Below, in pieces: positions 6,836-62,749 of a stretch of 64,000 bases of DNA. Under the pieces are notes generated by a model. That model saw nothing but the letters and a program-made list of their open reading frames with translations, had not been told where the DNA came from and searched no databases. Position 1 is the stretch's first letter. Every line of letters starts with the position of its first letter. Source of the DNA: Euglena gracilis (taxonomy: Eukaryota); assembly GCA_039621445.1 (NCBI GenBank), contig CP154954.1, positions 15,085,805 to 15,149,804 of the forward strand. The letters run 5' to 3'. The position numbers and the translations under genes were made by a program.

Positions 6836-6873
6836 CATCTGCCTGCTACCACCCATCCTGCCATCCTGCAGCG

Positions 6874-21553
<14,680 letters not shown>

Positions 21554-22619
21554 CCCCAACCCCCTGAGACTGGCGACACGCGGACGAGGATTTGAGGAGC
21601 AACGTTGCACTTCGTCAAGAACTGATTGTGGTCGTGACCACAGTCTAATTCGTTGCCTTAAAATGACACCTCTGGCTGTGCATTTAGCCTTTCTCAGACC
21701 ATGGCTTGTGCATGGTCGTTGTTCATGTGTTGCCTTGTTTATAAGGTTTTTGTGCTTCGGCCCCGGTGTCCTTTCTTGTCTGATCGGCTCGAGGAGACCA
21801 GTTTCAAGTTCAGCAATTTTGGCTGCGAACGAATCCTCAGACATTTTTTCCATTTTGGCTCAATCACTTTCAGAGCAGGCGGGTTGGATTGGTTGTAAAT
21901 GGCTCAAAAACAGGGACCTTTAGTCACTCAAAGTCTTGGCTGGCTGTCACTCAAAAACGTCGCAAGCAGATTGTCACTCAAAATCCTCGGGGCAGGCTTT
22001 TTCAAAAAGGCTCTAAAATCCAATTGATTGGTAGTTTCTTGGGCAAATAATTCAACAAACAATTTTTCGGAGCAAAACAATTTGGAAAGAAACTGGCAGC
22101 CTTTCGAGAAAAGAACCTTGGGGCATCAACTGCTTGCCAAAGACGCCCCCCTTGACCCCGCAGAGCATTCGGGCTCCGCACTGCGAGATGGTGAGGTCCT
22201 GCTGTCCTTACTCACCATCATCTTACTTGCTCGCCATCTTCTTGTGCTCCGCCCTCTTGGTCCCTTCCTCCCAATTCCTCTGTCGTGGGAGTCCGACTCC
22301 CTCGACCTTGGGGCCCCAACTGCTTGCCAAAGATGCCCCCCTTGACCCCGCACTCCCTCGGGGGGGGTGGGACCAGGGCTCAGCACAAAGACCTTGTGAG
22401 GCCATACCTTGCTCGCCGGTGCGGTGCTGTTTGGATTGCTTCGGCGCGTTGGGTTAGGAGCCCCTGCATAGTCCCGCCTCGCAGGAGTTTGGCTGATAGT
22501 GCTTCCCCGGCGTGGCGCCGTGGCCTCTGTCCCGTGGGGGCGTCCCCCCTCTGACCCCCTGGCCCCATTTTCTTCTGGCCGAGGGCTTTTGATCACAAAT
22601 ACGCGTGGGGGGGGGGCGG

Positions 22620-23066
22620 AGTGTACGTCCAACCCTTTTCCTCGCTTTCGGCCTTTGGTGCGCAAGGTAAAAAGTTGGAGTAACAAAAGGGGAAAAAAAT
22701 AAATAATATAAAAGTTGTAAGCCCTTTTCCCAAATTAAGAGGCCGAGCACAAGGCAGGGGAGAAGCCCTATGGGCTACGACAATGCAAAGTGCCAAGTGA
22801 CTTGGCTGTCCTTTCAGGACTTCAAATGAAAACAAATCAAACTTGAAATTCAAGTAGGACAAAGTGAAAGAACAAAATAGAAAATAGAAAATACCACCTG
22901 TGGTGAGGAGAACCAGAATAAGGATTAGGTATTCCTAATTCAGGCCGTTGGCCATCTTTAGGAATACCACCTAGCATAGTACTGTGTATGGGGCTCAGAG
23001 CTATATCTGGCCGTAGGCTTATACCTACATACACAGTACCATGGCCTTACGGGTGCCTGGTACACA
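22620..23066 (-). repeat. 3' LTR of element A
   Basis: Near-identical to 39568-40015; minus-strand ends TGTGTACC...GGACGTACACT. Confidence 0.95.
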
Positions 23067-23076
23067 TCCCCCTCCC
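23067..23076 (-). promoter_or_regulatory. Polypurine tract of element A
   Basis: Minus strand GGGAGGGGGA immediately before the 3' LTR. Confidence 0.85.
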
Positions 23077-23899
23077 AGGGCTATGCCTGATTTCCCTACT
23101 GGACCAGGCCAGTCGGAATGCCGGACACAGTCCTGGGGACGGGGACCTGTCTCAGAGCCGTATGCGGCTTTTGGTTCTCCTGTCACCAGGGGTGTAGGAA
23201 GGAAGATGCTAAATAACGCAATAACGCGCAAAAGTGGTTAACCGCTTATGCGGTGCCTACTTATTGCGGCAAAGGGGTGGAAGTGGAAGAGCCCATTGGA
23301 AAATGGGGCTGAAGTTTTCCATTCCAGAAAGTCCCATCCACCCAGTTTGGGGTGTGTCTATGACACGCGGGGAGGTCTCATTCCATAATCGGAAAAGATT
23401 GAAGGGTAGGGTGTGGAAGGAGCGGGAACCTGGCCAGTCATATCTGACCAGGGAGAAAGACCTATTTACAAAACCGACTGCCGGCGACAGCGATATTTTG
23501 CCCAGGGGGGTAAAGGAGAGAGGAGTGGGGGGCTGGTCAAAAGACCTTAGATGGAAGTTTTGCTGTCTGGCAGTCTTATGGGGCCTTATAGCCGAAAAGT
23601 AACAAGTTAGGGCTATTATTACGGTGTGCGCGCCGTACGCTGTGTGTCTTCTTACTGGCGGCATATACCGCTGAGGGAAGGCTTCACAGCGCGGCGTGGA
23701 CACGACGTTGTCGATGGGGTATCCCCAGAGGTGTATACCTCGACAGACGGGCGGTAGCCCAAAAGAGAGGGGGTCATATGCTGAATATAAATACATATGG
23801 GCAGATGTGCCTGGGATGGATACCGAATCTAGGGCCTATAGGCCTGAAGGAAAGGTCAGAACAGGGTCCATGGACCTGTGGCCTGTAAGCCTGGGGTAT

Positions 23900-26800
23900 C
23901 TATGGCACAGATGGGCATTTCCTGGGAGTCGGTGGTCTGATCTCCCGAACGTAATCTCCTTCAGGAGTTTCCACTATCTCCAGTATCGGAGGTTCAAAAT
24001 TTACAAGTTGCCTTTCAGGCTCATCGACATCATAATCGGGTGATTCCCAGGTTTGCGTATACCCATCGGGTAATCGTACTCCGAGCCTATTGGCTTCTCG
24101 ATGAAGAAAATTCTGGAGGTTATCCCAGAAGAAAAGTGGCAACATTGCCGGCCAGATCCAAAAATTCAGGCGGGGGTGGTTACACTAAACCTGTGGGGGT
24201 ATCCCCGGGAAGGTGGCAGTATCTGCCTTGCAATGCCAATTTGCGACTCGCGCTCGGATTGTAAAGGGCCTTAAGATTTCTCTTACCCAATCGGTAAATT
24301 CCATCTTATAGGCCTCAGGGGGGTATTCAGGCAACAAAAATGTATAACTTGGTTGGTTTGGCAGGCTTTGTGCCGAGAAAAGTGGGTATATCACCCTGTC
24401 CCAATCGGAGTCTTGAAAAAGATATGGCACTTTGGCCTTCCCTGCTGACTCGACTGCGAGTCGGACAGCTGCGCTGTCAAGTTGAAAATCTTTGGCGATT
24501 CCGCCTGTGCGGTAGCTGTGTACAGCTTTAAACTTCTTGAACTGGTGAAAGTTGATCTGGGACTTATAGTCCCCTTTGAATTTGACCAGATGGTCTTCAT
24601 TTTCTGGTATGACTCTAGTCATACCGCCAGTGGCAGGTAACCAGAAATCTGCCTGTAGGCAGTTGATGCAACAGACAGGTATGTCCTTGTCATAATCATT
24701 TTCCGTCCAGCGGAAAGTGTCCATATTGGACCATGGCAGTAGGCAATTGCCACAAAGCAATGCTGCGCAATTGCGCACATATGCGTCATGGTGGAAGTTT
24801 ATGCTGTCCGGATTGCGTGTGCAGATATGCACTGCGGGCATGTCGTTTCGTAGCATATGGCATGCTGTACATAACCACAATAGTGGATCATTTTCCTGGA
24901 AATCCAGGACGAAATTTCCTCCAAAATATTGGGCAAATACCCTTGGAGATTTTGCGTTCCAAAAACGCCAAGTGTGGCTGGTCGTGAAAATACCGGGTTG
25001 ATCCCGATGGAACAAGGGCTTGATCCACTTGTTCAGCCAGGGGTCACTGCTATTGCGGATCATATTGATCCTAGCCTGGCGAGTGTTGAGGGGGTCTACT
25101 CAGGACAATACGTCCTCAGTCCAAAATGGCTCATTAGCCTCGTGAGGGACATTTGACCGAATCGGTCTGATTGTGGGTTTGTGCTTAGCGCCTTCAGAGG
25201 TTGCAGCCACATAGCTGGCCATTGGTATTGTGGGCCTATGGCCTGTGCCAGAGCCATCTCCACCAGGAGGTGGTGGCTCATCATCCCGCCGCTTTTGAGC
25301 GGGCTTGCAGCCTTCGGCTGAGGGTTTAGCCTTAGGCTTTTTGTGTTTGCCATATCGGCGTTCTTCCCCAGGGTCTGCCGGAGGCAGTGGTCTTTCCGCC
25401 GTTGGCGGTTTCGGGGCTGCCGGCTTGGCAGGAGGTGGTTGCATTTCCGCCGTTGGCGGTGCTGGTGCCTCTGGTTTCGCCACTGGAACATCCAACTCCA
25501 TTGGAGTTGTGACCGCAGCCTGTACGGCTGTTGAGCTGCTATCAGCAGCAGTAACCCTTTGGGTTTCGGGAGGGGATGCGGCAGGTGAGCCGCGAGGGGT
25601 CAGCACTGCCGATACTGCGGACATCGCCGCAGTGACACCCTGTAGCACACCACCTTCCTCCTGAAGGAGATGTCAGCTCAGAATCTGAATCTCCAACATC
25701 CGAGGCCGAACGGCCACCGGTACCTCCGGTACCGCCCCTTTCCTTACCCGCAGTGCCAACGGCATCAACCCCGACAGAACCTGTCGCATCACCAACAATA
25801 CCTACAGGGGGTGTTCTGGAGCCCATTGGGGCTGGTGGAAGAGCTGGATGCTGTGGTTCATCAGCACATATTTCTTCCAAGCCTTCCATGCGGTCTTCAC
25901 CGCTCTCTCCATCACTCTCCTCACTGCCCTCCACCGTTTCAGGTGAAGCAGCAGGGGCTGCTGGCTGTTCCGCTATCGCGGTAGGCACAGTGCCTGTTTG
26001 CGCAGTCGGGCTGGTTGGTACCGCAATAGCGGGCTGGGGCGAGGAGGTAGTCCCTTAGGGACAAAAGGTCTGCTGTAGCCGATAGGCTTGCACCCATGTA
26101 ACGCCGACCACGCCCGAAGACGGGTGGTGGTGTCTCACCAGGAATACCCTGGGTACTGGCGTTGCCGGTTGCGGCTGAGTTGTGACTGATGTTGCCGGTT
26201 GCGGCTGTGTTGAGGATTCCGATGGCGGAACTTCCGGAGCCGGTTGCGGCTTCGGGCGGGGTGCCTTTGGCACCTGTCTTTTCCGTAATCGGAAAAGATC
26301 CCATGGTTTCCGTTCTTCTTCAACCATCCTGTGGTTGAAGCGCAGGAGGGGTAGGGCCATGCCCAACTCGTTCCGTCTGCCGCGTTGGAAAAACAGGCTG
26401 GAACAGCGCTCTATCGAGCGTATCGCCGAATCGGCGTTTGACATAATCGTCAATGCTTTCCTTCTCGAACCGGGGTCTAATGGGGACATAGTCCGGGGGA
26501 ATCTCCCTATCGGGATTGAGATAATAATATATCTCCATGATCTGGCAGGTCCAAGCCCTGAACCAGAACTGCTGCAAATACAGCAGGAGTTGACGGTGGT
26601 TGCGTCGCCCGTTCGAGCTTTGGTGTACATCCTTTTGATTTCGGCAAAGGTGCAGGAGCATGATGCGCTTTGGCGCTGCCTGCGGGACATTGGCCTGTTG
26701 GCCTTCCTCGTCCTGGCCTTCGGCCTGTGGTTGAGTACTGCGTACTCCGAATCCCCAGAAGTCCACTGCAAACTTTTCGTAGCAGTGAGAAAACCGGACG

Positions 26801-29581
26801 ATATCGACCACTTCAAAGTGATAGGCATATTGCCAGTGGTAAAAGACTTGCAGATTGCTGCAGAACATGTTTCCCGCCAATTTGGCGATATTTTCAGGTA
26901 GTGGGTAGAACTCCCACTCCAGGCCTTTTGGGCCCACACTGTGAATGCAGTCGAATAACTGTCGCAGCAGGTCTTTACCTGTATTGTATCGGTCTTCCCG
27001 ACCACAATCCAGGTAAGGATAGCCACAGGAGTTCAAGAATCTGCCGAAATTTTGGGTAGGGTATCCCGCCCAGAACCAAACATGCCAGAAACCCGGCAGA
27101 TTGTCCAATATCGGACTGAGGATGGGATTGCCCTCAAAGGCATATAAAGTTCCATCATGGTGGAAATCACGATTTCGCTCCGTATAGAGCTGTCTGGCCA
27201 CAGTCACGACGGGGGAGGCGACCAGGATTGCAAGGTTAAGTTCATTTTGGAACTTCCACATGGCCTCGAATGCGAGGTCATGAATGCTCTGGATTTGCTC
27301 GAATAGAGCTTCCATGTCGTCCTCATAGACGTTCCGGTATTGGCCTTTCTGGCCTTTGCCTTGGCCTTTTTGGCCTGCGGTAGGTGCTCGTTTGGGAGCA
27401 CTTTTGGCTTTACCCTTGCCCGATTTGGCTTCCCATCGGGCAATCTCTTCCCTAGCTTGTTTCCAAGCATGAGGACAGAGATCGGATGCAAAACGGGGAC
27501 CTAAAAATGCAGGATTCATATCGCTTGTTCGTCCAAGCTATTCCTGTGGGGCATAAGCCAGTTTGGGTGCTGGGTATGCTGCAGGTTGATCCTGCATATC
27601 TGCCACGTTCGAGGGTATCGTCGAAAATTTTCTGTACTCGTGCACGCTCCGCAGCTTCATGCTCGATTGCTGCCCTATGGGCTTTTTGAGCCAGTTCGGC
27701 TCGCTCGAGCTGCTGCTGTGTGGGTTCAGAAACAGGTAGTACCTCGGTTGCGGCCTGTTGGCCTGGAGGTACTGGTGTCTCTTGGGGTGGTGCCACTGGT
27801 GCTGTTACAGGCTGTGGCGCCGTTGGCGCTGCTACAGGCTGTGGCGCGATTGGCGCTGCTGCAGCTGTCGGCGCTGCTGCTTGTGCTGGCACCGGTCTGG
27901 GGGGTTGCGCCATTGGCGCTGGCTTGGCCGGCACGGTAAACGGTACGGGCACGGGAGGGGGTGCGGCCTGTTGACCACCCGATGCCCGACGTTGCTGTGC
28001 AGGGGTAGCCTGTCTGGCTGGGCCTGGGGGTTTTGGTCTCCCCATTCGGGATGACAATTCTGGCCTACCCCGTTTCCCTAGGTCTGCTGGCCTGTATGGC
28101 TGTGTTGCATATCTGCGTTCTGCAGACTGTGGGCCCTGGAGGTGTTCCAGGGATTGGTAGTACTGGATGGCCTGCTGAGGTGATGTGAAGCAGGGTTCTG
28201 GAAGGGGTTCATGTACCGTTGGTACATCCTCTTCCACAGCCATACGGCCTTCGGCCTCGGCCTGCTCCACATCCTCAGCCCAGCATCCAGGTTCCTGAGC
28301 CACCGGCATATCCAGTTGTACGGGTAACTGACTTCCTGCTTCCAGATGGGCTGGATATGGAAATGGCGGTAGTGCCGTTGACGGTTGCGTCGTTGGCTGA
28401 TACGCATATTACGTTGGGGGTTCCCGATATTCGGGTTGTGGTGGTCTTGGCATACGAGGAGGGGACTGGGTATCGCGAAAAATTTGTGATGGCTGCACCA
28501 TTGGTGCTGGGATATCTCCCGCCTCGCTTTCCGCCACTGGGGGGCTATGCACCCGCATATATTCGGTGAATGCACCTGTGTGATGACGGATCCGCGGCAT
28601 CGGCGGTGCCTGGATACCCAGTGTACGCATGCTGACATCAGGGGGATATTCCCCAGGAATGAAGTACACTTTCCCTGTCATCAGAGTTTGGCCACAAGCG
28701 CACCATTGTGCAATAGGCATATTGGCCAGGCCCAAAATCTGACGACAGTGGGTATCCCACATCACTTGTAAGGAGGGGTCTGCTCTTTCGAGTGCGCTAA
28801 CGCGCAGGGCAGTCCGCAGAGTTTTCTCTGCGAGATTCACCAATTCTGCGGTGAATGCGGGGTATGGCACTGTTAGTGCTGGCTGGGGCGTCTCATGCGC
28901 CGCAGGGATCGCATAAGGGGATATACTACTGCTGCTGACCGCGGTCTGAGCCGCAGGCTCCCGACCGGGTTGAGCAGCAGGAGGGAGCATCGCCTGTACG
29001 GCGTGTACCTGGTGCGGGATACCCTGTACGGGTTGTGATTGGGGTTGTGTTTGGGATTGTTGAGTCATAACGTACTGTGGTGTATACAGGATGGGAGGTG
29101 AGGGACCAGGCATGGCGTAATGTGCCTGCTCCATTGGAGGTGCCTGTCCCTGCCTCGCATACTGTTGTTGTTTCATTGGAACTTGGTGTACCTGTTGAGG
29201 GTGTGGTTGTTCCATTGGAACTTGATATGCCTGTTGAGGCTGTGTCGCATATGTAGCTCCCATTGGCACAGAAGCCGAATGAGCGACTGGTGGTGGTTGC
29301 GCCTGAGAGGGGGGCGGCATTTGTGCCTGAGAGGGGGGCGGCATTTGTGCCTGAGACGGGGCTGACATATGTGACTGAGAGGGGTATGGCATTTGTGCCT
29401 GAACCATTTGAGAAGGGGGTGGCATTTGTGCCTGAGCCGCATAAGCGGCTGGAGGGGGTTGATATACTGCATATGCAGGCGCCCCGTGGGCTGGAGGTGC
29501 CGCCGCATAGGCGTGTGGGAGGTAGGGAGGGATGGCATACTGTATAGGGGGCGGTCCTGGGCCGCGCCCTGGGTCTTGCAT
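23900..29581 (-). pseudogene. Extra sense ORF region ('ORF3') of element A, downstream of pol; fragmented; unknown function
   Basis: Segments 29581-28409, 28309-27452, 27519-26320, ~25990-25100, 25063-24185 and 24145-23900 align in order with the element B cassette (AQWCACGQTLMTG; FWHVWFWAGYP; HSVGP; VDFWGFGVR; HTWRFWN..SPRVFAQYFG; WETPS/WESPD). Confidence 0.8.
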
Positions 29582-29707
29582 TGGTCCGGGAACCAAAAGC
29601 AACAAAAAAAGTAGCTTTGATGAGCTGTAGAAAAAAAACAAGGGATAAATGAATTGGGGTTGGGAGAAAAACACAGAGAGGGGAGGGAAAAGGCCTATAG
29701 GCCGATT

Positions 29708-29905
29708 TCAAAAAATATTCACAGAAATGTCTATGTTATTTCTTTTATTACACAGCTTCCAGTCCTGTTGGACATAACCAATAAAACTGGAGGCTGGCTC
29801 CCAGGTGTCCTCCTCTGGCCCATAGCCTTTCCACCTGACCTTCCAGTAATGGACTCCCCGATCAAGTTTGTGATCGAGAATTTTGTCCACCACGAAATCA
29901 TCCGT
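29708..29905 (-). CDS. Chromodomain at the C-terminus of element A integrase
   Basis: VDKILDHKLDRGVHYWKVRWKGYGPEEDTWEPASSF is a typical chromodomain signature. Confidence 0.92.
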   Translation of the reverse strand, partial: TDDFVVDKILDHKLDRGVHYWKVRWKGYGPEEDTWEPASSFIGYVQQDWKLCNKRNNIDISVNIF

Positions 29906-32800
29906 TTCGGGTAACTTGGAACGGGGCTTGAAATAAAGGCACGGTAGTGCTTTGCATAAGGCGGGGAAAGGTATGGTTTGAAATCATCCATGTGAACATC
30001 CTCGATCCCGTTGGGAAGTGCCACCCTATAGCGGCCACTGTTACCAACGCGTTCGAGAATTTCACAGGGCCTGAGCCAGAGGGGGTCTAGCTTGGAAGCT
30101 TGCATACGGATTCGGCTATTCCGAACCCATACGCGATCACCAGCACTATAGCCAGGTGATTTGAATTCTTGCAAAAATTTATTTCTCTTTTGAGAATGGA
30201 TATCAGTAATGCGTTTCTGAACAGTAGTTCTGAGAGACTCTACTTCAGAGAACCATGTCTCACAGGTTACGCTACTTCGAGCTGGTCTCTCTGATGGTAT
30301 ATCACCAATCGCTGGCGGGTCTCGCCCAAAAACAATTTTATATGGGGAGTGCGGCAAAACTAGACCCGGTAGGGTGTTTATATAAAAGAGGGATCATGGC
30401 AAAACCTGGACCCAGGCCTGGCGCCAGTCATCCAGTGAGAGGCGGAGCATATTTACAACAGCCTTCACTGCTGCCTCGGCGCGGCCATTGCCCTTCGGGC
30501 AATATATAATTGAAAAATGCTGTTTGATTCCCAGTAAACCACATAGGGTTGTGAAGAATCGGGGGGAGATCAAATGATCTTGATCACTGACAATCTCATT
30601 CGGCAAGCCCATTAGTCAGATACACTTTTCTATAAATATCTGCGCTAAAATTTGCGCGGTCAACCCTGCCTTTTGGCTTGGAATGGCTACTATGTAACCA
30701 CTCAACCGACAGAAGACAACAAAAAAAGAATCTTAAATTTTGCCGTCTGATCCTTTGCAAGGTTCTAATTCAAGAAAATCCATGCAGAGGGACGTAAAAA
30801 TGTCAGCGGGTACGGGTAAAAAATCAAGCGTACCGGGTGGGTACCTTTGCGCCGTTTCACCGCTTGACAAATTTGGCACCGTTGCGAAATTTGCAAGCAG
30901 CGCGAATGCAAATCTTTTTCTTTCTGGGTTGTACAATACCTGCGACCCACCAGAGAAAGAAGTTTGGGGGCCCCAGGGTGACCTTGGTTGTGATAACACA
31001 AAATTACTTCATCAACCAAGTCACGGGGTATACAATATTTATATCCCGCATCATCGCGGTAAACCAACCGTAAAGGCGAGATAGTACAATTATGTACAAC
31101 CTCGCCATTGCGCAGTCTGTGCACTATCGTGCTATATACAGGGTCATGGGAATAATCTCAATCGCGAAAGAGGAGGGGGGAAGGAGATTCAGATCGCGTA
31201 ATGCGACGGGGACCAGGTGTGCGGCCTCGCCGTCTTCTCCCCCATATAGGACAGACTGGCAACGAACGGAAAATCGATGAAACGGGAAAAGAATCCAACA
31301 TATCGTCGGCTGCGTCATATCGACGTGCACATTCATCAGCCTCTTGGCTGCCATGAAAGGTGGCATCACCTTCATCCAGGTTACCGGGGTAATGCCAGGG
31401 TGCTCGGCTGAGCGGGTCTGCTACTTTCTGTGTATGGCCAGGGTATATACAACCACTAGGTTGAATTGGCTCAAACATTCATGCCATCGGCATCTTCGGC
31501 CTACAGATGACATGGATTTGTTCAGATCCTTGGTATACCAATGTTGAAGACTCTCATTGTCAGTCAACACCAGTATTTGCACCAAGGAGCTGGCGACCCA
31601 ACTACGGAATTTTTTGCAAAATAAGTACGATTGTGTACGTTTCCTTCTCACGGATACTCCACTTGTCATTTGACTTTGCCATCTTCACCTTGTAGCTTTC
31701 TACTGAAAAATGCTACAGGGCGTAATTCGTTAGCCGCGTTATGCTGGATTAGAACACCGCCTGCAGCATAATCGCTGCTATCGACTTCTAGCACATAAGG
31801 CTTGTAGGGATCCTCGATGACGAGTACGACATTTTCAAGCATTAGCTTTTTAATGCTCTCTAGAGCTTCACGCATATCTGCGTCCCATTTAATTTTTGTT
31901 TTTTCGGGTGCGCGATTTTTGAGCTGCCTCGATAGAGGCACCGCGATTTTCGCGAAATCTCTCATGTAAATCGCGTAGTATTGAGCTAATCCCAAAAATC
32001 CTTTCAAACGGGTGATGGTCTTGATGACCTCAGGTGTCCACTTCTTAATGGCCTCTAGTTTGCTAGGCGCCGCTCGGCGTTGGCCATTATTAAGAATGTG
32101 ACCGCAAAACTTTATCGTTTCGCGAAATAAGTCCATTTTAGCTCCTTTGACAAAAAGTCTATGTTTGAGAAATGCGGCTAATACCGCGGAACATCACGAT
32201 AGTGAATGTCGAGAATATTCTCGTGTGTATTCGCTGAATGAGGGGGGGTACCAACCAAAACATCATCAATGTACACCTGCGCAAACGGTAAATCCCGTAA
32301 GACCCATTGGATCATGCGCTGAAACATTGCTGTCCATTCTTAACACCCATTGGCAAAACCGTCCATTGGTAAACACCTTTGGATGTTACAAAAGCCGTAT
32401 AGGCTTGCGAATCGGGATCCAGATGCATTTGGTGGAAACCATCCTCCAGGTCGAAAATTGACCACAAGCGGTTATCCGCTTGTTTTGTGATTAGGTCCTC
32501 AATTAGAGGTAACGGGAAGGGGTCATCCTTATTTTGTGAGTTTAAGTACCGATAATCCAGTACTAGCCTCCACTTTTTCTGACCTGTTGGGTCTGGGGGC
32601 TTAGGAACAACAAAAGCTTGGGAGGTCCATTCACTTTTGGAAGGGATGATCCACTTCCGCTCTATGAGCGTTTCAATCATTTCATTGAGAGCTATCTCTC
32701 TTTCTCCCGAACAACGGAAAAATTTCGGATGCATTGGCTTTGCGCCTTCCTTAAGCTCAATCTTACAAACTCCAAAAGGTCCGTGAATAGCGGGATCTAT
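29906..32800 (-). pseudogene. pol: pol RT / RNase H / integrase of element A (frameshifted)
   Basis: KWRLVLDYRYLN, FDLEDGFHQM, LPMGVKNG, VYIDDVLV (~32263-32274), FLGLAQYY, EVDSSDYAAGGVL, VAFFSRKL, LTDNESL, VADPLSR, H-x3-H..CQIC, LCMDF, IVSDQD, NGRAE, DPLWLRPCEI. Confidence 0.95.
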
Positions 32801-33049
32801 ATCGCAAGCGTAAACAGGGTTCTCCAAAACACCAGAAAATTCGCGACTGATGCGCGTACAAAATTCTGTTGATTTGGGGTGCTGTCCTGCACTTTGAATG
32901 ACAGCGGAAACCTGTTTATGGGTCATATCAACCACAAGGGGGACAGAACGGTGATGCCTATCGGCATTATGGACAAAAGCCGTATCGGCTCCCACATGGT
33001 CGGTATGATCCAACACACTAACATTCAGGGGTGGAGATTGAGAAACATT

Positions 33050-33460
33050 GAAAGCATCAAAGAAACAAACACGAAAAATGTTTTCTTGGAAAGGTGGTAG
33101 TACCACTCCACGGAAATCCTTGAATGGAGAAACATCGTTTGGTAGGTCCCACCAATAAAATGTGACATAAATCAAATTTTGAAACCATTCCGCTTCGGGA
33201 TTCACAGGAACAAGTAATGTGCCTCGCGCTTGATCCTGGAAAATCTTATCTACAACAAGCCGGATAAGTTTTAGGGGGGGATGCATCCATAGGATAGTGT
33301 CTCCCCAAAACTTATGAAAAGCGTCAGAATGTTGCGACCAATGTCGCGGTAATCGCGAATGCGCGTTGGAAGAGAATGCATCAATGTTAAGGTCAACTCA
33401 GAGGAATCCGCCATATCGGCGATTTTTGAAAACCAATGTTTCAAAATTCGATATTTGACC
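33050..33460 (-). CDS. Dam-like DNA N6-adenine methyltransferase domain within pol of element A
   Basis: YRILKHWFSKIA..DLNIDAFSSNAHSRLPRHWSQHSDAFHKFWGDTILWMHPPLKLIRLVVDKIFQDQARGTLLVPVNPEAEWFQNL..WWDLP..FRVCFFD follows the IDxFA..LPR..DAF..W..xPP..I..V..KI..G.L.VP..WF pattern of phage-Dam/DIRS MT domains. In frame with RT. Confidence 0.75.
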
Positions 33461-34486
33461 AAAGTGAAAAGCATTCCAGGTATCCTTGGTGTACTTGTAG
33501 ATCTGCTCAACATCCTGAAGGGGGGGAACACGCTGTAACACAGAACAACGGAATTGTGAATCATCGACACAAATGTCCATAGGACTGGTTCCAGGGGGGT
33601 CATGGGTTGGTTGGGCATATACCCAGTCATCGGTGATGCGCGATAGCGCGGAATGCGCGATATGCGCGGGATTCGCACTATGTGCGTCAAGCGCGATATG
33701 CGCGGGGGTGTTGGAGAGCGCCATAGGCGCATGGGGAGCGCTATGCGCAAATCCGAAAAGGGAGGCTATGCCTTTGCACTGTAGTGCTTGATTCACATTC
33801 GCGAATTGCGAAAAGCTTCCAAGTGTATGTGTGGGATGTTAACAACTACTAAGTGTATTGTTGGGTGCACTACCCATTGTACCAAGGCCATGTACCTTTT
33901 GGTTATCTATTAAATCCGTACCGGTTGTACCACTACCAAGTACATAGGTACCACTACCAAGTGTAGGGGGGTAAAAGTTCCCGGTTGCGGGATCCAAACG
34001 GATTAGTTTGGAAGATTCAACTAGACACCCACAATCAAAATCATGGTAAGCGGAGATTCTCCGACAGTGAGCGCATTGGTAGGAGGGTTGATGCATGTGG
34101 TGCGCGTTTGTGTGGGTGTCAGTGCATAAGTTGGTGTCGGTTGGGGTAGCTGCTGGGGGGTGTACAGGGATGTCTGAAATCGACACACCTGGTGGAAAAC
34201 GAAAAAGTTGGGCAGCTGGGCGGCTACTCGACACCGTAATTACTTCAGGCCTTTGGGCTTTCGCCTGGGAACCCAGCGAAACGTGCGGGGTTAAGCTACT
34301 GGCTTTCCCTACCGCATGGGAAACGAGCGGTAAAAGTGCGGTGGGTAGGGGGGCAGCTTTCTCTTTACCCCTAGGGTAGGAAACGGTGTTTTCGGTTGTG
34401 GAAAACGTTGTGGAAATGCAGGGGGACATCCCGGGGGATGTCACGGGAGACAAGTTTGGGGGTGTGGTGTGTATGTGGGGGGTAGT

Positions 34487-34870
34487 TCACAAACCGTGCG
34501 AAGGACAATCCACCACCAATCGGTGTTGCCGTAGGAATGGAAAACCGAGTATGACATCAGAACCGGCGATATTCTTCTCGAATGCCCAAGTACCCAGAAC
34601 ATTTTGGAATTGTGGGGGGGGGTGCTTCGGGATAATGGGGAGGACTATGTCCAAAATGCATCCCAAGTCACCACCGCACATGGGGCTGTTGTCTGCAGTC
34701 ATCATTTTGATGAGATTCTTGGCATGAACCAAGAGGGGGGTGGGTATAAGTCCTTTGCGGAAAAGAAGGGGGATTCGACATCCTGTGTCGACTAAAATTT
34801 TGGCTTGTGCACAAAAATTTTGCGTTTTAATTTTCGCTTGGACCAAAAGTTCCATGGGGGGTAGGCAAAG
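34487..34870 (-). CDS. Aspartic protease of element A
   Basis: AKILVDTGC..IKMMTADN..DVILGFPFL. Confidence 0.9.
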   Translation of the reverse strand, partial: LCLPPMELLVQAKIKTQNFCAQAKILVDTGCRIPLLFRKGLIPTPLLVHAKNLIKMMTADNSPMCGGDLGCILDIVLPIIPKHPPPQFQNVLGTWAFEKNIAGSDVILGFPFLRQHRLVVDCPSHGL

Positions 34871-35134
34871 CGAATGGTCGGGTGTAAAATTGTTGTCGCA
34901 CCAACTGTTCCATGACCCTTTGCTTACTTTGCTCAACATTCCAAGCAAAAATTTGGCGCGGGGAGTGGGGGACCCGAAAATTTTCCGGGTACCAACCAAA
35001 AAGACCGATGGGCAGGGGGGCAGGGTTGATCAGTTCCTACCTCCATCTGTTCATATGCCCAGAGGTCCGTGCCCTCAGACCTCGGGATCCCCTACTGCAT
35101 ATCGAAGTCGGCCTTTTGGCCTATGGTTGGCTTC

Positions 35135-38100
35135 CTAGAGTAAATTTGTGCGTATGGTGCGAATCGCATTCATGTCTTCCACCAACTCATCCTCGGTGCT
35201 CTCATCCCCCTCCCTGCCCGAGGCCAGGTCTTTTTCCTCGATAGAGGATATTTTGAAACCAACCCGCTGCCTATTGGCAGAACCGCGATTGGAATCGCGA
35301 CGACCATGGCTAGGACGGGGATAACAGGAACGGGGGCACTTGGATGAATGGTGGTCTTTAGACCCACAAAGGGAACAACGGTTTCGCGATTGTGATTGCC
35401 TTTTGGCATCATAGCGACGCGGGGAGCGCGTATCCGCTCGACCGCGATCAGATCGCGAAGAGGATGATCCACTTCGCGACCGAGATCGCAAAGAATCGCG
35501 ATTCGTATCCCGATTGCAGGTGGGGGGGCGGGGGGACCGACCACGCGGTATGAAACCACGTCCGCTATTGCGGTGGGGTGAACAGGAACGCGGTCTACCA
35601 TCACCCGATCGGTATCCCGATCGCTGCGAATGTGCAGAACGTGAAGAACGCGACCTCCAGGAAGAGAGGGATCCTCGGGGGCTCTTACTGCGATTTCGCG
35701 CTTGGGGATTGGGACACTCCCGAGACATATGTCCTGGTTGATTACACAAAAAGCAAACTTTGTCCGAAACTTGATCAGAAGAGCGCGAGTAGCGCGGTTT
35801 GGATTCCCGTGTGGGGGATTTGGGGTTTGAGCGCGGATGGCGCGTTTTGGAATCACTCGATGGTGATTTTGGTGATTTTGGGGAAGTAGTCCTTTGGACT
35901 GCATGGACTGAACCGGTGGGTACACCCGCGGTGTGGTGGTGGTGATACGCCGATTCAATCTGACCCAGAAGTTGTGATAACTTCATTTGTTTGGAAACAT
36001 AGTTCCATCTCTCATCGAGAGTCAAAATGTGTCCCGCGAGTTCCTCGCGGTTAATTTCCTTGATGAGTTTGGGGATATAGCGCAGTAATACCGCATCAAA
36101 TTGTTCTTTGATTTGCTCTTCCCCTAACTCATCAACTTCGGCTGCCAGTGGAAGCCACTTGGAGTACCATAAGTCTATCAAACTTCCATTTGCGGTCCGG
36201 GGGGGTAAATTGCCGCCATTTGTTTTCCAGACTGATTCTGGAAACCAAACTGGAGCATGATGAAGCATATTGCTCAACCAATTCCTCAAAAGAAATGCGC
36301 CTGCAGATGACTAATTTTCTGGCGCGTTCTTTTTCATCCCTTGGGAGGCAATCAATAAACTCCATCTTGATTACCTCTGGGTTATCATCTTGGGTGGGTC
36401 CCTTCAAATCCCAATAATATTCCCAGTCGCGGAAAAATTGTTTCCATGTGGTGGGGTCACCATAACATTGGGGCTTCACCTTGTTCGCTATCGCGATGGT
36501 GCCTTTGAAATCTTTCTGAGAAACCCGTTGCCCTTCGGTGGTATTCCAGGGGTGTGGGCCCGGGCGCGAAATTGCACCACGTGCAGGTACACCGGTGGTT
36601 GCACCAAGGGTATTGTTCGGGTAATTCTGCGAATGCGCACGGAACATACCACTTAGTGTACCATAGGTACCATGCAAATTTAGTGAATCGCGATTGCGCG
36701 AACGGTGATGCGGTTGCGCATGTAGGGGTGAGGTATCACATGGTTGCACCATTGGTGCTACTAAGCGAGTTTGGGAAGTATGACCAAAACCCAGTGTGGG
36801 GGTGCGGGCCATACCACGAATTAGTTCGGATTCCCGAATCTCTTGATATAAGAGGGGGGTGGGTCTGGTTTTCGCTTGAAAACTCGACTCGTCATCCGAA
36901 AACTCGTCCATTGGGCCTGGTAATGCTAGTGGGGGAACCACCGCATGAGCGGAAACGCGATTTGGTAGTAATGTGCCTGTGGACTCGGGGATTGTTGCGC
37001 GAGTGGCGCTTTTTGAGCTGGAAGCTGCGGCAAGTGTGCCAACCATACCCGATTGCGGGTTTTGATGGATGGAACGCAATTGTGCGTGAATTTGGTCCAA
37101 ATTTGTTGCAAACTCATGCACACTTTGCTCCAAATAGTCAACAACCTGCCAATTGTCGGTTATCCGACCCACATCCTCCTGCAAACGCCTAATCCGCCTA
37201 CGGTATGAGGGTAGCTCATCCAAAAGCGGGATTTTGTCGGATATCGACGGGAAATCGTGCGAAATTGCACCAAAACCAGTGTCCAATTCCTGTACTCTTG
37301 TCACCAACGTGCGCATCGCACTGTAAATGTTCTCCAATTGTGGATATGGCTTGGTGGGTTGGTCCGAATGCGGATCTTTGACTTTTTCAGCCATTTGCTG
37401 TTTCTGCAACACTGAAACTTGCGCGGATAGCGCGATAAGGTCATTTTGCAGTTTTGTGACATCCTGCTTCACCGTTTTCTCGGTGTTCATGAGACCATCA
37501 CAAAATCCTTGCATGATTTGGTGATTTTCCTCGCGCATTTCAGCGCGAATCTGGTCCAAGTGTGTGTTTGGGAGTGTGGGGGGAGGTGTTGGTAACGGCA
37601 ATGTGCCTTGGGGTGGTGATTGCACCTGAAGCATTTTTGTGCTCATTTCTTGCATGCGTTTGTGCAAATCCGCTATCGCGGTGTGAATGCCGGTAACATC
37701 CGGGATCCTACCAGCTACTTCCGCATGGCGGGTGTGCAACTTAGCCAATGAGGCTTCAATTTTACTAACATCCTGTTGTTACTGTTTGTGCAAGTCGGAC
37801 ATGGTGGCCTTGAGTCCGCTAATATGCGGTGTTGGTGCACGGGTTGCCGCATTGCGGTTCTGCAAATCCGTGATTGCGGTCCGGATTTCTATTGTGTCGT
37901 TTTGCCACTGTTGTTGCAAATTCTCAATCCTACTCGCGATATTCGCGATTTGCGTTTGAAAACTCACAATTTCAGCAAGAATTTCGCTACAATGGCAAGA
38001 TATCTGCTCCAATCGAGAAAGTCTTTCCTCCAATTGTTGCACATACGTGCGGGGGGCAAAACTTTCATTGGCTTGGGCGGAAAAGTGCGCAAAATTCGCG

Positions 38101-39308
38101 GAATCACCGCTCTACTGGGAAATGTGCTGTTGCGCTTCCTGAAATGCGGATGCAAGTGTGGAGAATTGCTCCAATGTGATAAATTGTCCCAAATCGGGAT
38201 TTTTGACGGAGATTTCATGCAACTTTTGCTGCAATTGTGGAAAAATTGCCGTAATTGGTTCCAATTGATGGGATAAAGCTTGCAAACTACGTTGCATGTT
38301 GGAGAAAATCGCATCATTGCGGGATTGTGTTTCACACATGGCTTAACTCACTTTTTGGAAGTGTTGTGGCAAATGTGCCTGCAAATGTGTGTCTAAACCT
38401 TGACGCAAAGTTGCTAGGTCCACATTGGTGGATTGAACATTTGTTCGGCAATATTCACCAACATCACGCACATAACTGCAAAGGTAATTCAGCTTGTGTT
38501 CTACAAACTTTTGGTTGTTTTCATCAAAATCCAAAACAGTGTTAAGTGTCATAGCGCAATCCGCTACACGGATTGAGTACACACTAAGTGTGGACATGGG
38601 AGATTTGCCGCGTTAGCGGGTGGTCCACTGGAAGATTTGCGACTATGCGCTGAATCACGGTAATGGGTTGAGGGGAAATATTTTTCAACTACTCCGCATC
38701 ACTGCTCATAGATTCTGTGGGACTTGCATAAGCCGGAACTGTCAAACGCATCTCCGGGTGCCATGGCAATGCCGGAAAAGAACCCGTATCGGGTGGTGCG
38801 GGCAATTGTCCAATCAGACTTGTGGGGGGAAGCATAGGTGGGGGCTGAAAGAAACATGGTGTTTCTAACCCACCCTCAACAAAAAGTTGCTGTGGCGTAT
38901 CCGCCTCAGAGTCAAATGTGCCTATCGGCACCAGTGCGAGATCTCGCCGTGGGAATGGGTGTTAGCCGATCGGCTTTCCAACAAAAGGGGTTGGGCCTGT
39001 TGGGCATGGGGTTGCTCTATAGAGCTGGAAACCAAAAGTGGTTGTGCCTGTTGGGCATGGGTTTGCTCTATAGAGCTTGACACCGATAAGTGTGGGGGTG
39101 CCCATCGGGCGGTGGGAGGATTATTCGACACAGACACCGATAGGTGTGACACACGCGGGGAAGGAGGATTACCTGCACAATGAGTCAATGCTTGAGTACC
39201 CCTATGGGGTTGAGAATCCTCATTGGAGCTAGTCAATGATGCCGCAGGTTCAAGTACTCGAAGTGATCCAATCAATGCAGCGTAGTCAATGGGAGTTGTG
39301 CTCTGCAT
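35135..39308 (-). pseudogene. gag: Very long gag of element A (coiled-coil N-terminus, capsid-like region, two CCHC knuckles); disrupted
   Basis: Begins MQSTTP; heptad-rich segments; WKQFFRDWEYYW; CFLCNQPGHMSREC and CSLCGSKDHHSSKC; RS-rich tail. Confidence 0.85.
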
Positions 39309-39540
39309 TTTTGAAGCAAAAACACAAAAACCAAGTGTAACTAGTGGGGTAAAATGCAGAAACAAGTGCAAAAAGATGGGATAGTATAAAAAGTAAGCAG
39401 AGACCCGAACTCTGAGGTTTGAAGCAGCGTATACTGCGAACCGTCAGAGGACGTGTCCGTGCGTACGGCTTTGGCCGGAAACGGCTTGTAGTGCCTGTGG
39501 TCGCCTATAGGCGGGGCACCACACGACCGTTTCCGGTCAA

Positions 39541-39567
39541 ATGGATCGAAAACCTAAACTGCTACCA
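39541..39567 (-). promoter_or_regulatory. Primer-binding site, initiator tRNA-Met type
   Basis: Minus strand TGGTAGCAGTTTAGGTTTTCGATCCAT directly after the 5' LTR. Confidence 0.85.
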
Positions 39568-40015
39568 AGTGTACGTCCAACCCTTTTCCTCGCTTTCGGC
39601 CTTTGGTGCGCAAGGTAAAAAGTTGGAGTAACAAAAGGGAAAAAAACTAAAATAATATAAAAGTTGTAAGCCCTTTTCCCCAATTAAGAGGCAGAGCACA
39701 AGGCAGGGGAGAAGCCCTATGGGCTACGACAATGCAAAGTACCAAGTGAATTGGCTGTCCTTTCAGGACTTCAAATGAAAACAAATCAAACTTGAAATTC
39801 AAGTAAGACAAAGTGAAAGAACAAAGTAGAAAATAGAAAATACCACCTGTGGAGAGGAGAACCAGAATAAGGATTAGGTATTCCTAATTCAGGCCGTTGG
39901 CCATCTTTAGGAATACCACCTAGCATAGTACTGTGTATGGGGCTCAGAGCTATATCTGGCCGTAGGCTTATACCTACATACACAGTACCATGGCCTTACG
40001 GCTGCCTGGTACACA
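39568..40015 (-). repeat. 5' LTR of element A
   Basis: Near-identical to 22620-23066. Confidence 0.95.
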
Positions 40016-40020
40016 GGCGG

Positions 40021-48790: not shown

Positions 48791-49649
48791 GCCACTGTTT
48801 GCGCACACCACCATTCTCTTCATTGCCAAATTCTCTTCATCCCCAAATCTTCATCACCTGTGGCGTCAAACCGCGACGACCACCAATTTTTCAACACCGT
48901 TTTCAAAAACTTTTAACCCGTTACCAACCACACCAACCAACGTTTTACACACCGGGTGTACCGAGAAAGTTCACCCCCTGCCCACTGACACACCAACTTC
49001 CGTTCCCCATGAAGCAGGGCAGGCGAGTAGCGGTACCCCTCTCGTTCCACTGGGTTACAAGACGCAAGCCCAAAGGCCTGAAGTAATTACGGTGTCGAGT
49101 AGTCGCCCAGCTGCACCAACATCCCGTTTTCCACCAGATGTATCGCTTTCAGATACATATGTACACCCCCCAGCAGCTACAAAAGCGCATCCCAACTTTT
49201 ACACACATCCTCACCAGACCAACACGCGCGACCAGGACCACTACTCCAACACTTCCTTCCAATGTGTGCACTGTAGGAGAATTTCCGCCCAGCCAGATTT
49301 CGATTGTGGTTGTTTAGTCCAAACACCAACACTAATCCCGATTTCGCTCACCCATACACTTGGTTGCGGATCGCAATGCGCGACCGTACACCAAGTGCTC
49401 CAACAACGAGGTATTGCCTTGTTGTTTGGGTCCGCGAAATCCGTGTCACACACCTCCCCCACCTCCATCTGGCATGATATGGACTTGGTATGCACCCATC
49501 CAACCCATCAACCCTTGGGAATGCCCCTATGGAGTGTGGATGACACACCCTTGACCTATGTTTGTGGATCCCTGAATTGCGTTACCGCTCTTCAACCCGC
49601 GAACCAGGTGGACACCTACGCGATGCACGTGTGGAACGCATTTAATTTT

Positions 49650-50055
49650 GGTCAATACCGTATTTTGGAGGAATGGTTCTCCAAAATAGCTGTTTTGGCT
49701 GATTCTTTAGATTTGTCGTTGGAAATTGATGCGTTTTCATCAAAAGCGCATGCGCGCTTGTCGCGATATTGATCGCGACATTCCAACGCATTTCTTAAAT
49801 TTTGGGGTGATACGTTGCTATGGATGCACCCTCCCCCAAAACTTATCCCGGATGTGGTGGAGAATATCCTCCGCGATGAAGCGCGAGGAGCTCTCTTCAT
49901 ACCCGTCAATCCGAATGCAGATTGGTTTCACCAACTATCCTATGTGTGCTTTCATTGGTGGGATTTACCCGCTGATGTACCACTATTCGAGGATTTTTGT
50001 GGTATATTATTACCACCTGTTAAAGAAATCATTTTTCGTGTTTGTTTCTTTGACA
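49650..50055 (+). pseudogene. Dam-like N6-adenine methyltransferase domain of element B (one in-frame stop)
   Basis: QYRILEEWFSKIA..LEIDAFSSKAHARLSRY*SRHSNAFLKFWGDTLLWMHPPPKLIPDVVENILRDEARGALFIPVNPNADWFHQL..WWDLPADVPLF..LPP..FRVCFFD. Confidence 0.75.
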
Positions 50056-50303
50056 CATTCGGAATATCCGATTTGCGTGTGCCAAGATACCTTGGTACCA
50101 ATGGGGATGCCACACCCTCAACACAGATTTCCGCGGTCATTGAGAGTGCTGACCAACACCCCAAGTCAGCTGATTAGTGTTCGCGAATTACTCGCGAATT
50201 CCATGGTGTACTGGATAACCCAGTTTACGCCTGCGACATCGACCGCGCGATTCGCGGTCCGTTCGGTTTTTGCAAAATCGAGCTCAAGGGTGGAGCTAAA
50301 CCC

Positions 50304-53914: not shown

Positions 53915-56124
53915 TTCAACACGGAAGGTTGAAGTGCTTGTGCAGCGCAACTTCAGGCTCAACTTTTGCTCGGTCTTCCGAGCATTCAGGAGCCACAGTA
54001 CGGGACATTGAATGAATGCTGCACCCCCATCTCCGGCAGAAGTGCAACCACCGTTAGGGGATGAACCCCTGCCGACAGAGACATATGTCGCACCGGCTAC
54101 AACGGAGGTTCAACCTCCCGTAGCACCTGCGCCAGCGGTTGTGGAGGATCAACCTCCTCGACCGGATGTCGAAATGGAACTGGAGGAAGTACCCCCACGA
54201 CCACCGACACCGCGCAGGATCCCTGCCGTCCCGAGGACAATGGCAGAGTTTATGGGAGTGTCAGCGCCTGTGGAAGCACCGATTCCGGTGACGACCACAG
54301 CACCACGCCCCGTCGGGCAGGATGACCCTGCTCGGCGCAGGGCGGCTGAACAACCCCAGGAACGAGTGCCGACCCCTCGGAGCGTCATGCGCGATCCAGC
54401 GGTCATTATGCCCGCTTCGCCCAGACGGCAAACGTCTGCTCCGGCACCATCGGCTCCTGATACCAGGAGGAAGCCACAGGCGTCGCCTCCTGATTCCGGG
54501 AGTGCGAAGCCGAAAGGAGGCAAACCGGGTGCTGTACCCTTTAAACCCCCTGCCAAAGGCGATGATGGGAAACCACCACCGAAAGGTAGCGCTGGAGGTC
54601 AGACTGGCGGACAGTCGAAAGGCCCTACGACAATGCACGACTATTCGGCCGTTACATCGTCCGGGTACGGCAAGAGCAAACCGAAAGGTAAGGCTCATGG
54701 TCGACAGGCCCAATCTTCCGCCGGATCGACGGATGAGGAGCAGGATGAATCTTCTTCACCTCCCGTGTCTGCGGATGCCCATCTCTGGACTCAGGATATC
54801 CTGACCAGACTAGGCACCGTGGAAGAGAGGACGAAGAAACTGGCTGCTATTAGGCAGCAGAAAGGGTCACATAATCGATAGATTCAGCCCCTCTTCGTCC
54901 GAGGAGAACCTTTCCACTATGTCCCGGAACATACCTGGACATTCTGGAACAGGCGCTCACCCAGAGTACTTGCACAGTACTTTGGCGAGGATTGTGTGTT
55001 GGATTTCCAGCACGGCACGTCATTTGCCTGAACGTGCACCGTGTGCCACCATCTGCGGCACTACCAACCGCTTGTGCATGTGTGCAAGCGGCAGGTGCAA
55101 TCCACGACGTTCCATCACAGGGCATATGTGCCGAACTGTGTGGCGCTCGTATGTGGCGAGTGCCTGAACGCCTGGAAGCACAGCTTGAACTACTCCTACA
55201 GTGAGAATGCTCACGACAGGGATATCCCTGCCTTGTGCATCAACTGTACAGGGGCCAAGTTCGTGCAGACTGCTGATGGAGCAGTCACCACCATTGTCCC
55301 CCAGCACTTGGAGACACTGGAGAAGTGGAAGAAGGAGTACAAGCAGGTGGAAGGCCGCCTGAACCACTCCGACTTCCGAAAGGTAGAAAGCTACCGCCAC
55401 ACGGGAATGGCCCGTGAGTTCCAGACAAACGCTGGGGCAATGCGCCTCGCCGTCGAGGAACACGCCAAGGTAAGAATGCCTTACCTCTGGACCGATGGCG
55501 ACTGGGAGACACAGGTTTACCCCCTGTTCTCCAAGCGTCAGCACGGCGGATACGCCTTGCCACTGTGGCCTCCTGAAGAACACGATTTAGTGGACTTCAG
55601 AGGTTGGTTGGCGGCTGTATTACGGCCCCATACTGCAAGAGCTCGGACAGCGAAGTGGATGTATGACATCAACTTCAAGCAGACCCCGGGGATGCCCCCG
55701 CAGGTGTCTGCGAATCACCCCCGGATGAATTACATCATCTGGCCGGTGATGCTGCCCAGAATTTTCTGGGAACAGCTCCAACGGTACCTTCAGCACATTG
55801 CTGACCGTACCAGGGAGAAGCTGCCGGACAGTTGGATCAAGGACTGGGAGACCCCATCCTTTGATGTCAAAGATCCGGAGCACAACACCATCCGGAGCGA
55901 ATCAGCTCCGCAGCGTTCCCCACGCCAACTGGAGTTGGTTGAGGACCCATTAGGGGACCCTCAACACGACTATTGGCGTGAGGTGCGCGAACGCCCAGCC
56001 GATAAAGGCAGGTGAGGTGGCTGTAAGCGCCAATGCGGCGTCTTTCAGAAACCTCGTCAGGTATTTGCCTGACACCCTGTTCGGGTATTTGCCCGAACAC
56101 CCCTTCGAAGACCCTTTGCGGTAT

Positions 56125-56925: not shown

Positions 56926-57117
56926 AAACGATTTCGTTTCGGAGAATGTGTGTGTTTTATGTGAATGTTTCGCGTTTATACCCACCCCTGCACTCATCTT
57001 CTGTCTTTCTCACAGAGTTTTTGATTAAGATAGAAGCCTTCTTTTTTCAGTGCACCAGCACTCAAAGCTACTGACAAAAAGGTTTCCCTTCGTTGCAGTC
57101 GTCGTTCGGGTAGCATC

Positions 57118-62637: not shown

Positions 62638-62749
62638 GGTGGCTGTAAGCGCCAATGCGGCGTCTTTCAGAAACCTCGTCAGGTATTTGCCTGACACCCT
62701 GTTCGGGTATTTGCCCGAACACCCCTTCGAAGACCCTTTGCGGTATATA

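Follow-up and report, generated by a model that had tools for sequence, protein, structure and literature searches.

Element A and its Dam-like domain

The window, by which we mean the whole 64-kb stretch of DNA analysed, contains two related retroelements. The first of these, element A, is 17.4 kb long (22620-40015, minus strand), is flanked by LTRs and carries, in its sense orientation, gag, protease, linker, Dam-like domain, reverse transcriptase (RT), RNase H, integrase, chromodomain and extra ORFs, in that order (Table 1). A purine-rich tract lies directly inside the 3′ LTR. At the end of the integrase, SH3_Tf2-1 was matched with an E value of 6.9e-7, just under the Pfam cut-off, and over the integrase core the rve-bearing part of protein P0035 aligns to 30948-30124 (E 8e-32). 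No tyrosine recombinase (Phage_integrase) was detected by Pfam in the window ORFs scanned, and an Rfam scan of the 64-kb window gave 0 matches. Element A is a chromovirus-like chromodomain Ty3/gypsy LTR retrotransposon and not a DIRS element; the LTRs, the 5-bp target duplication, the H2C2 zinc finger, the integrase core, the SH3-like domain and the chromodomain, together with the lack of a tyrosine recombinase, agree with the original prediction that the Dam-like domain resides in a DDE-integrase element. The same prediction had placed the domain between protease and RT, which holds for the order of the segments; the protease itself is recognized by its DTG and ILGFPFL motifs only, and a Pfam scan of 34490-35029 matched no protease family.

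Table 1. Features of element A and of the Dam-like domain of element B (window coordinates)
Feature	Position	Strand	Basis or remark
5-bp target duplication GGCGG	22615-22619 and 40016-40020		Flanks the LTRs of element A
3′ LTR, element A	22620..23066	minus	97.5% identity to 5′ LTR
Extra 6.6-kb ORF region, chromodomain to 3′ LTR	23067..29707	minus	ORFs protein-conserved in element B
Chromodomain, end of pol	29789..29896	minus	Chromo E 1e-11; downstream of SH3-like integrase end
Integrase: H2C2 zinc finger, DDE core region, SH3-like C-terminal part	29986..31031	minus	Integrase_H2C2 E 3.2e-7
RNase H domain	31436..31887	minus	RT_RNaseH_2 E 3.2e-17
Reverse transcriptase	31900..32605	minus	RVT_1 E 2.3e-12; frame broken after 32312
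Dam-like (PF05869-type) methyltransferase-fold domain, element A	33050..33478	minus	Pfam, phmmer, models, fold matches
Motif IV position, HPPL (family consensus NPPF)	33272..33283	minus	Element A codons
Linker, protease to Dam-like domain, ~340 aa	33479..34489	minus	Sequence
Putative aspartic protease	34490..35029	minus	Motif and position only: DTG 34789-34781, ILGFPFL
Gag region, coiled-coil part and CCHC zinc knuckle	35135..38111	minus	zf-CCHC E 5.6e-8
Primer-binding-like site starting TGG	39567-39548		Directly inside 5′ LTR of element A
5′ LTR, element A (sense orientation)	39568..40015	minus	Direct repeat of 448 nt
Dam-like domain, element B	49632..50063 (approx.)	plus	One in-frame stop
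Motif IV of element B, HPPP	49827-49838	plus	Dam-like domain codons

The Dam-like domain comprises about 143 amino acids (33478-33050, minus strand) and lies in the same ORF as the start of the RT. ORF 33397..32312 (minus strand, 361 aa) begins with VDLNIDAFSS..RLPRHWS..DAF..FW..LWMHPPL..VVDKI..GTLLVPV..WF..WWDLP, and the RT follows in frame, with RVT_1 at residues 265-355 (Pfam, E 2.3e-12), as had been proposed for this string, which is read on the minus strand. The domain in fact starts about 80 nt upstream of this ORF, at around 33478, where a helix is encoded (WNAF..YRIL..WFSKIA). In element A this N-terminal stretch is enclosed by two frame changes that compensate each other, one near 33456 and one near 33385, so that the TGA at 33398-33400 falls within an out-of-frame stretch. 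In addition, two in-frame stops are present in the linker (34487-34489 and 33839-33841), the intact relative P0001 (see below) aligns to the RT region in three frames, and more frame breaks occur in the RT, RNase H and integrase. With these stops and frame changes, the element A copy is dead.

The 6.6-kb region that separates the chromodomain from the 3′ LTR could not be assigned to a known family, in that none of six ORFs had a Pfam match. One of these ORFs codes for 304 aa rich in Cys and His; its best score against the Atlas was 0.86, too low to use. The FxGxG, PCQ and ENV motifs of C5 methyltransferases were absent from the three sense frames of the region, which is a weak test, and because no C5 methyltransferase was found in this way we did not class element A as an 'EpiLTR'. 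The linker holds a CxxC-x11-D(F/Y)DCGC motif (34075-34025, minus strand; DFDCGC in element A) that precedes the Dam-like domain by some 190 aa; it has a counterpart in element B at about 49240-49290 and is kept in five of the 151 representatives listed (P0001, P0002, P0009, P0010 and P0046). This stretch may represent a small module that binds zinc and accompanies the Dam-like domain.

Elements of this kind are already known; element A adds one more to them, with a motif IV that is degenerate. Dam domains in non-DIRS LTR retrotransposons, named 'DAM-LTRs', were described in May 2026 (Fernandez-Moreno et al., bioRxiv 10.64898/2026.05.21.726589); according to the preprint's text, chromodomain LTR forms account for 30.9% of its DAM-TEs, and the Dam domain was transferred at least four times from DIRS to Ty3/gypsy elements. 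The novelty of element A is modest because its kind is already in that preprint, and what the original prediction had implied in this respect was too high. No other report of such Dam-bearing LTR elements was found in the literature besides the preprint, and the Troyka paper (PMC12440569) does not mention a methyltransferase. Like the chromovirus-like form of DAM-LTRs, as the preprint's text describes it, element A is a Ty3/gypsy LTR element with a DDE integrase, a chromodomain and a DIRS-type Dam domain in pol, and the domain is short, has a small sheet-plus-helices fold, and is missing the N-terminal parts that serve catalysis and recognition in bacterial Dam. Element A differs from the DAM-LTRs of the preprint's text in its length of 17.4 kb and its 6.6 kb of extra conserved ORFs, and in motif IV, which reads HPP(L/P) in elements A and B and Asn-Pro-Pro followed by an aromatic residue in nearly all sequences of the preprint. 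The order in element A is protease-Dam-RT, whereas the preprint's text locates the Dam domain of one clade between RT and integrase.

The domain is also almost certainly of the same family as the methyltransferase (MT) of DIRS1-like tyrosine-recombinase retrotransposons, with which it shares the pattern DAF(A/S)S .. DAF .. W .. LW.NPPF .. VV.KI .. G..VP.W..WF .. WWDLP, and which the Dam profile of Pfam detects, as noted in the text of PMC3783388. DIRS1-like elements have the order RT-RNase H-MT, and the text of PMC3266345 says of the MT that its 'function ... remains unknown'. The MT of DIRS elements had been stated to follow RNase H, which agrees with the architectures given in PMC3266345 and PMC3783388, where a tyrosine recombinase is present and protease, DDE integrase and target duplication are lacking. 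Unlike DIRS, element A has the Dam-like domain before the RT, direct LTRs, a 5-bp duplication, an integrase and a chromodomain.

Relatives, fold and motif IV of the domain

The window's own domain matched the Pfam Dam family (PF05869) over residues 4-74 of the ORF and profile positions 30-105 of 169, with an E value of 1.3e-3 and 18.9 bits, under the cut-off of 28.1; P0001 reached 19.6 bits and is also under this cut-off. A phmmer search with the window's 117-aa piece against 1.84 billion cluster representatives matched 374 of them at E<=1e-3, including 74 that reached 1e-10 and 5 that reached 1e-30, well past what chance would give. We then scanned with Pfam 27 of the 150 listed matches (P0001 and longer ones), out of the 374. 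The Dam family was detected at E<=0.01 in 24 of the 27 and over the gathering cut-off in 13, the relatives compared with this cut-off having been retrieved by the window domain at phmmer E values of 1e-8 to 1e-20. A 44-row alignment has the consensus DAFAS..DAF..W..LW.NPPF..VV.KI..G..VP.W..WF..WWDLP. Searching with a profile for longer family proteins gave 5 proteins; the few Atlas members with a taxon were eukaryotic, most often Preaxostyla or Chlorophyta, and a green algal host would be a guess. No PDB sequence matched the family profile at E<=10. The segment almost certainly belongs to the retrotransposon/phage Dam family.

Among the 27 relatives scanned, the Dam domain lies upstream of RVT_1 within one protein in eight, and a weak protease match was found upstream of Dam in three (P0015, P0038 and P0007). 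In five others the RT (and RNase H) comes before Dam, with an integrase after it in three and a chromodomain in two of those; two carry the Copia-type RVT_2, seven have Dam alone, one has no Pfam match, and in none of the 27 did Pfam find a tyrosine recombinase. Thus, the protease-Dam-RT order is common across environmental eukaryote contigs among the relatives surveyed, and Copia-type RTs (RVT_2) can adjoin a Dam-like domain, while the preprint's text names only DIRS and Ty3/gypsy-like carriers. The two proteins with RVT_2 have the orders integrase core-Dam-RVT_2 (P0134) and Dam-RVT_2 (P0074). In another relative, P0141, a weak match to C-5 cytosine methylase (E 0.007, residues 210-278) was seen upstream of the Dam-like domain (452-527); judged from its sequence, P0141 may represent a dual-methylase element of the 'EpiLTR' kind.

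The second retroelement of the window, element B, runs on the plus strand from before 44034 to past 56900 and has about 68-75% DNA identity to element A; like A, it is a broken copy. The Dam-like domains of A and B share 66% amino acid identity over 114 codons, and P0001, a metagenomic protein of 1208 aa, has 71% identity over the domain (phmmer E 8.9e-53). P0001 is one intact open frame that codes for a Dam-like domain, RT, RNase H and the zinc finger of the integrase, and the linkage of Dam and RT in one frame was seen in A, B and P0001. For the domains of A and B (113 codons), dN is 0.214 and dS 1.20, which gives a dN/dS of 0.18; for the N-terminus of the RT the ratio is 0.04. By these codon comparisons, the Dam-like domain is under purifying selection within the family. 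Because the LTRs of element A differ by only 2.5%, most of the divergence between A and B arose while the lineages were active.

Three of the extra ORFs of element A have protein counterparts near element B (37-42% identity; 54819-55706, 57355-57546, 58804-59642 and 61441-62328), and because of these protein-level counterparts the extra ORFs belong to the element family. A 3.36-kb stretch with the integrase end and chromodomain of element B (54019-57374) is repeated, at 98% identity, 6.62 kb downstream (60641-64000), and in each 3.36-kb unit a homologue of the last extra ORF of element A lies upstream of the integrase end. From this repeat and the placement of the ORFs, the region of element B would be either rearranged or a tandem of partial elements.

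AlphaFold2 models were obtained for the domain of the intact relative (147 aa; pLDDT 95.8, pTM 0.89) and for the window's own 117 aa (pLDDT 94.6, pTM 0.85). Against the predicted viral structures of BFVD there were 19 matches at E<=1e-3, and the best named ones were phage DNA N-6-adenine-methyltransferases (E 4.2e-9 to 5e-7, TM 0.69-0.76, rmsd 2.3-4.2); for the top phage N6-adenine methyltransferases, TM was 0.74-0.76 and rmsd 2.3-3.0 over 133-151 columns, with 13-21% identity. In VIA-align, all 50 rows listed were methyltransferases or methyltransferase-fold chains, with Z values of 10.2 for PH1948, 10.0 for CAPAM, 9.2 for METTL5 and 8.9 for KsgA, and, among DNA methyltransferases, 8.4 for T4 Dam, 8.2 for M.TaqI and 8.0 for EcoDam; a Z of about 10 is slightly over the 7-8 typical of models without clear matches. 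The window's own model gave CAPAM at Z 9.9 and the next row at 7.2, 2.7 lower. Foldseek against the PDB gave nothing below E 1e-3, the best match being 6irw (CAPAM) at 1.0e-3, and the fold assignment rests on BFVD and VIA-align.

On these models, the domain has a predicted class I (Rossmann-like) SAM-methyltransferase fold resembling that of phage Dam. A Rossmann-fold methyltransferase match for the segment was thus obtained, and the Dam-like N6-adenine methyltransferase identity put forward earlier is supported by the Pfam Dam family relatives, the class I fold and the phage N6-adenine methyltransferases among the best matches. The phage Dam-type (PF05869) N6-adenine methyltransferases are the best structural matches of the modelled domain; unlike them, the domain of the element is under the Pfam cut-off, has a degenerate catalytic motif and is embedded in a retroelement polyprotein.

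The HPPL motif described for the segment is real, and HPP is common to A, B and P0001, the last with HPPL. In the model, HPPL comes directly after the strand at residues 64-67, and a helix is next; this is the place of motif IV in this enzyme class. The pattern (D/N/S)PP(Y/F/W) is not found at motif IV in A, B or P0001. Among the listed proteins, 144 of 151 align there. These 144 representatives begin motif IV with Asn in 103 cases, His in 21, Cys in 12 and something else in 8; PP is present in 120, F, Y or W is the fourth residue in 100, and 68 are fully canonical. Some of the listed representatives may be decayed copies. In almost all of the Dam sequences sampled in the preprint, according to its text, an Asn-Pro-Pro triplet is followed by an aromatic residue (bioRxiv 10.64898/2026.05.21.726589).

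A FastTree phylogeny of 111 domains groups A, B and P0001 in an HPP clade that is nested among NPP(I/V/L) sequences (P0002, P0005, P0007, P0010-12 and P0004), and this nesting places the loss of the aromatic residue before that of the Asn. The His codon of motif IV has a synonymous difference between A and B, and other near-invariant positions (DAF, the second DAF, W, L, P and VP) are kept in element A. His and Cys variants at motif IV recur in separate clades and, because of this recurrence, may be tolerated active forms.

Possible functions of the domain

In active members of the family, the domain would be made as part of Gag-Pol and carried in the particle with RT and integrase, where it could meet the element's RNA or cDNA. 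For the domain of the HPP sub-lineage, canonical N6-adenine methyl transfer has most likely been lost, because motif IV no longer has its hydrogen-bonding Asn or its stacking aromatic residue while the rest of the domain is conserved; the domain would then be kept as a binding or scaffolding module, for nucleic acid, SAM or a host factor. We give about an even chance to the reading that the domain is non-canonical or inactive and still functional, in binding or as a scaffold, a judgement that draws in part on analogy. The analogy is with METTL14, whose EPPL motif lacks the usual acid/amide and the aromatic residue needed for stacking and which, in the account given in PMC5023411, is inactive and kept as a nucleic-acid-binding scaffold. 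The likeness serves as an analogy for the persistence of a degenerate site and is not put forward as homology: METTL14 differs in belonging to the MT-A70 superfamily, in being a cellular protein and in forming a heterodimer with METTL3. The whole account, of a pol-embedded Dam domain of a 'DAM-LTR' chromodomain Ty3/gypsy element, mechanism included, is one that we regard as evenly balanced between right and wrong.

The useful point of the locus is that motif IV is degenerate yet the domain is selected. Somewhat more tentatively, and short of an even chance, the HPP(L/P) lineage may be viewed as a natural experiment, in which the Dam domains of retrotransposons need no canonical catalysis: a high-copy 17-kb chromovirus would keep under purifying selection a Dam fold without the Asn and aromatic residue of motif IV, and the role under selection would be binding, for instance to hold on to the RNA-DNA intermediate or to bring in the 6mA machinery of the host. 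If true, a binding role would account for the negative methylation assays on other TE Dam domains. A selected domain (dN/dS 0.18) with a degenerate motif IV also allows a direct comparison with NPP sisters such as P0002 and P0005: binding by both forms and methylation by neither would call for a revision of the 6mA-writer model, and methylation confined to the NPP forms would mark the HPP clade as one whose function has changed.

The main alternative to a binding or scaffolding role is an active N6-adenine DNA methyltransferase whose motif IV is a variant one, with His in the place of Asn as the hydrogen-bond acceptor, and which puts 6mA on the cDNA or RNA-DNA hybrid of the element. New insertions would then come to lie in permissive chromatin whose 6mA the host maintains, as in the DAM-LTR model of the preprint. 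A neutral His at motif IV could still take a hydrogen bond from N6; the domain retains its entire fold and the remaining near-invariant positions, purifying selection acts on the domain, and His is the second commonest residue at motif IV (21 of the 144 listed) and is conserved within clades. We know of no amino-methyltransferase with His at the first place of motif IV, and this counts against such an activity.

Moreover, in this enzyme class the residue that follows PP is an aromatic one that stacks against the target adenine, as PMC5023411 states for METTL3/14; it is L in element A and P in element B. In the preprint's text (bioRxiv 10.64898/2026.05.21.726589), DAM-LTR copies are 6mA-enriched in three protist species and show higher expression in two ichthyosporeans, and because of this enrichment activity in at least some lineages is favoured; however, TE Dam domains with an intact NPP caused no rise in 6mA in dam-deficient E. 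coli. The proposal made there is that LTR elements captured Dam to exploit 6mA chromatin, and the same text presents this activity as not demonstrated. On balance, an active enzyme with a variant motif IV is possible for element A and its family, and we consider it rather unlikely.

It is improbable that the domain is directed to RNA, methylating N6 of adenosine in the element's own transcript (cap-adjacent or internal A) in the manner of CAPAM/PCIF1. CAPAM is the best Foldseek match in the PDB (6irw, E 1e-3; TMq up to 0.65 for 6irx) and is top or near-top in VIA-align (Z 10.0 and 9.9), giant-virus PCIF1-like proteins rank after the phage Dam proteins in BFVD, and the rRNA m6A enzymes METTL5, KsgA/DIMT1 and Erm are also high in the structure lists. 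However, phage DNA Dam is far better in BFVD (E 4e-9 as against about 1e-3), the sequence family is PF05869, and the rank of CAPAM in the PDB may reflect the absence there of a close PF05869 structure matching the family profile; the degenerate motif IV speaks against any N6 transfer to adenine.

That the domain is foreign to the LTR element, as a nested DIRS fragment or an assembly chimera, is hardly credible even though DIRS elements are its classic carriers (in the accounts of PMC3266345 and PMC3783388) and the preprint's text mentions possible nested or chimeric cases in one species (bioRxiv 10.64898/2026.05.21.726589), because three independent sequences, element A, the 27%-diverged element B and the intact single-ORF P0001, keep the same in-frame order, Dam is followed by RVT_1 in one protein in 8 of the 27 relatives, no tyrosine recombinase was found in these 27 or in the window ORFs scanned, and DNA contigs of high depth cover the stretch compared with the reads (run X1, 30 of 30 bins; see below).

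Read data and the rest of the window

Fourteen DNA runs labelled as one organism contain 48-59% of the sampled words; the smaller shares in a leaf-litter metatranscriptome (0.17) and in organisms B and C (~0.2) were not used as evidence. In one DNA run, X1, 49,093 short contigs were found over 30 of 30 bins of the stretch compared, so that the element family is highly repeated in X1. At position 34487, all 27 covering X1 contigs differ from the letter of the window, so that the stop after the protease (34487-34489) is private to the element A copy. Seventeen X1 contigs end at 33455, the first frame change of the Dam-like domain.

About 5-6% of each RNA run was read, and support from RNA was thin: in two runs there were 25 and 27 reads, most of which matched partially and formed a pile at 35018-35054. 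The RNA reads of this pile (~37 nt) continue into unrelated sequence on both sides, and we rejected them as a sign of element expression, since they represent a short piece common to another transcript. A third RNA run gave 73 reads over 28 of 30 bins, with the first mate mostly on the plus strand, an orientation that would be sense for element A under the usual stranded protocol.

The CpG observed/expected ratio of the window is 0.66-0.85, and (CA)n is the sole abundant dinucleotide repeat. At lower window coordinates than element A, short pieces resembling leucine-rich-repeat (LRR) exons are spread over about 12 kb of the plus strand (6870-18400), and the multi-kb stretches between them contain long (CA)n/(GT)n arrays (10100-10360 and 19890-20530) and an 18-nt tandem array (12490-13170); from its sequence, this region resembles an LRR gene of the host whose introns are long.
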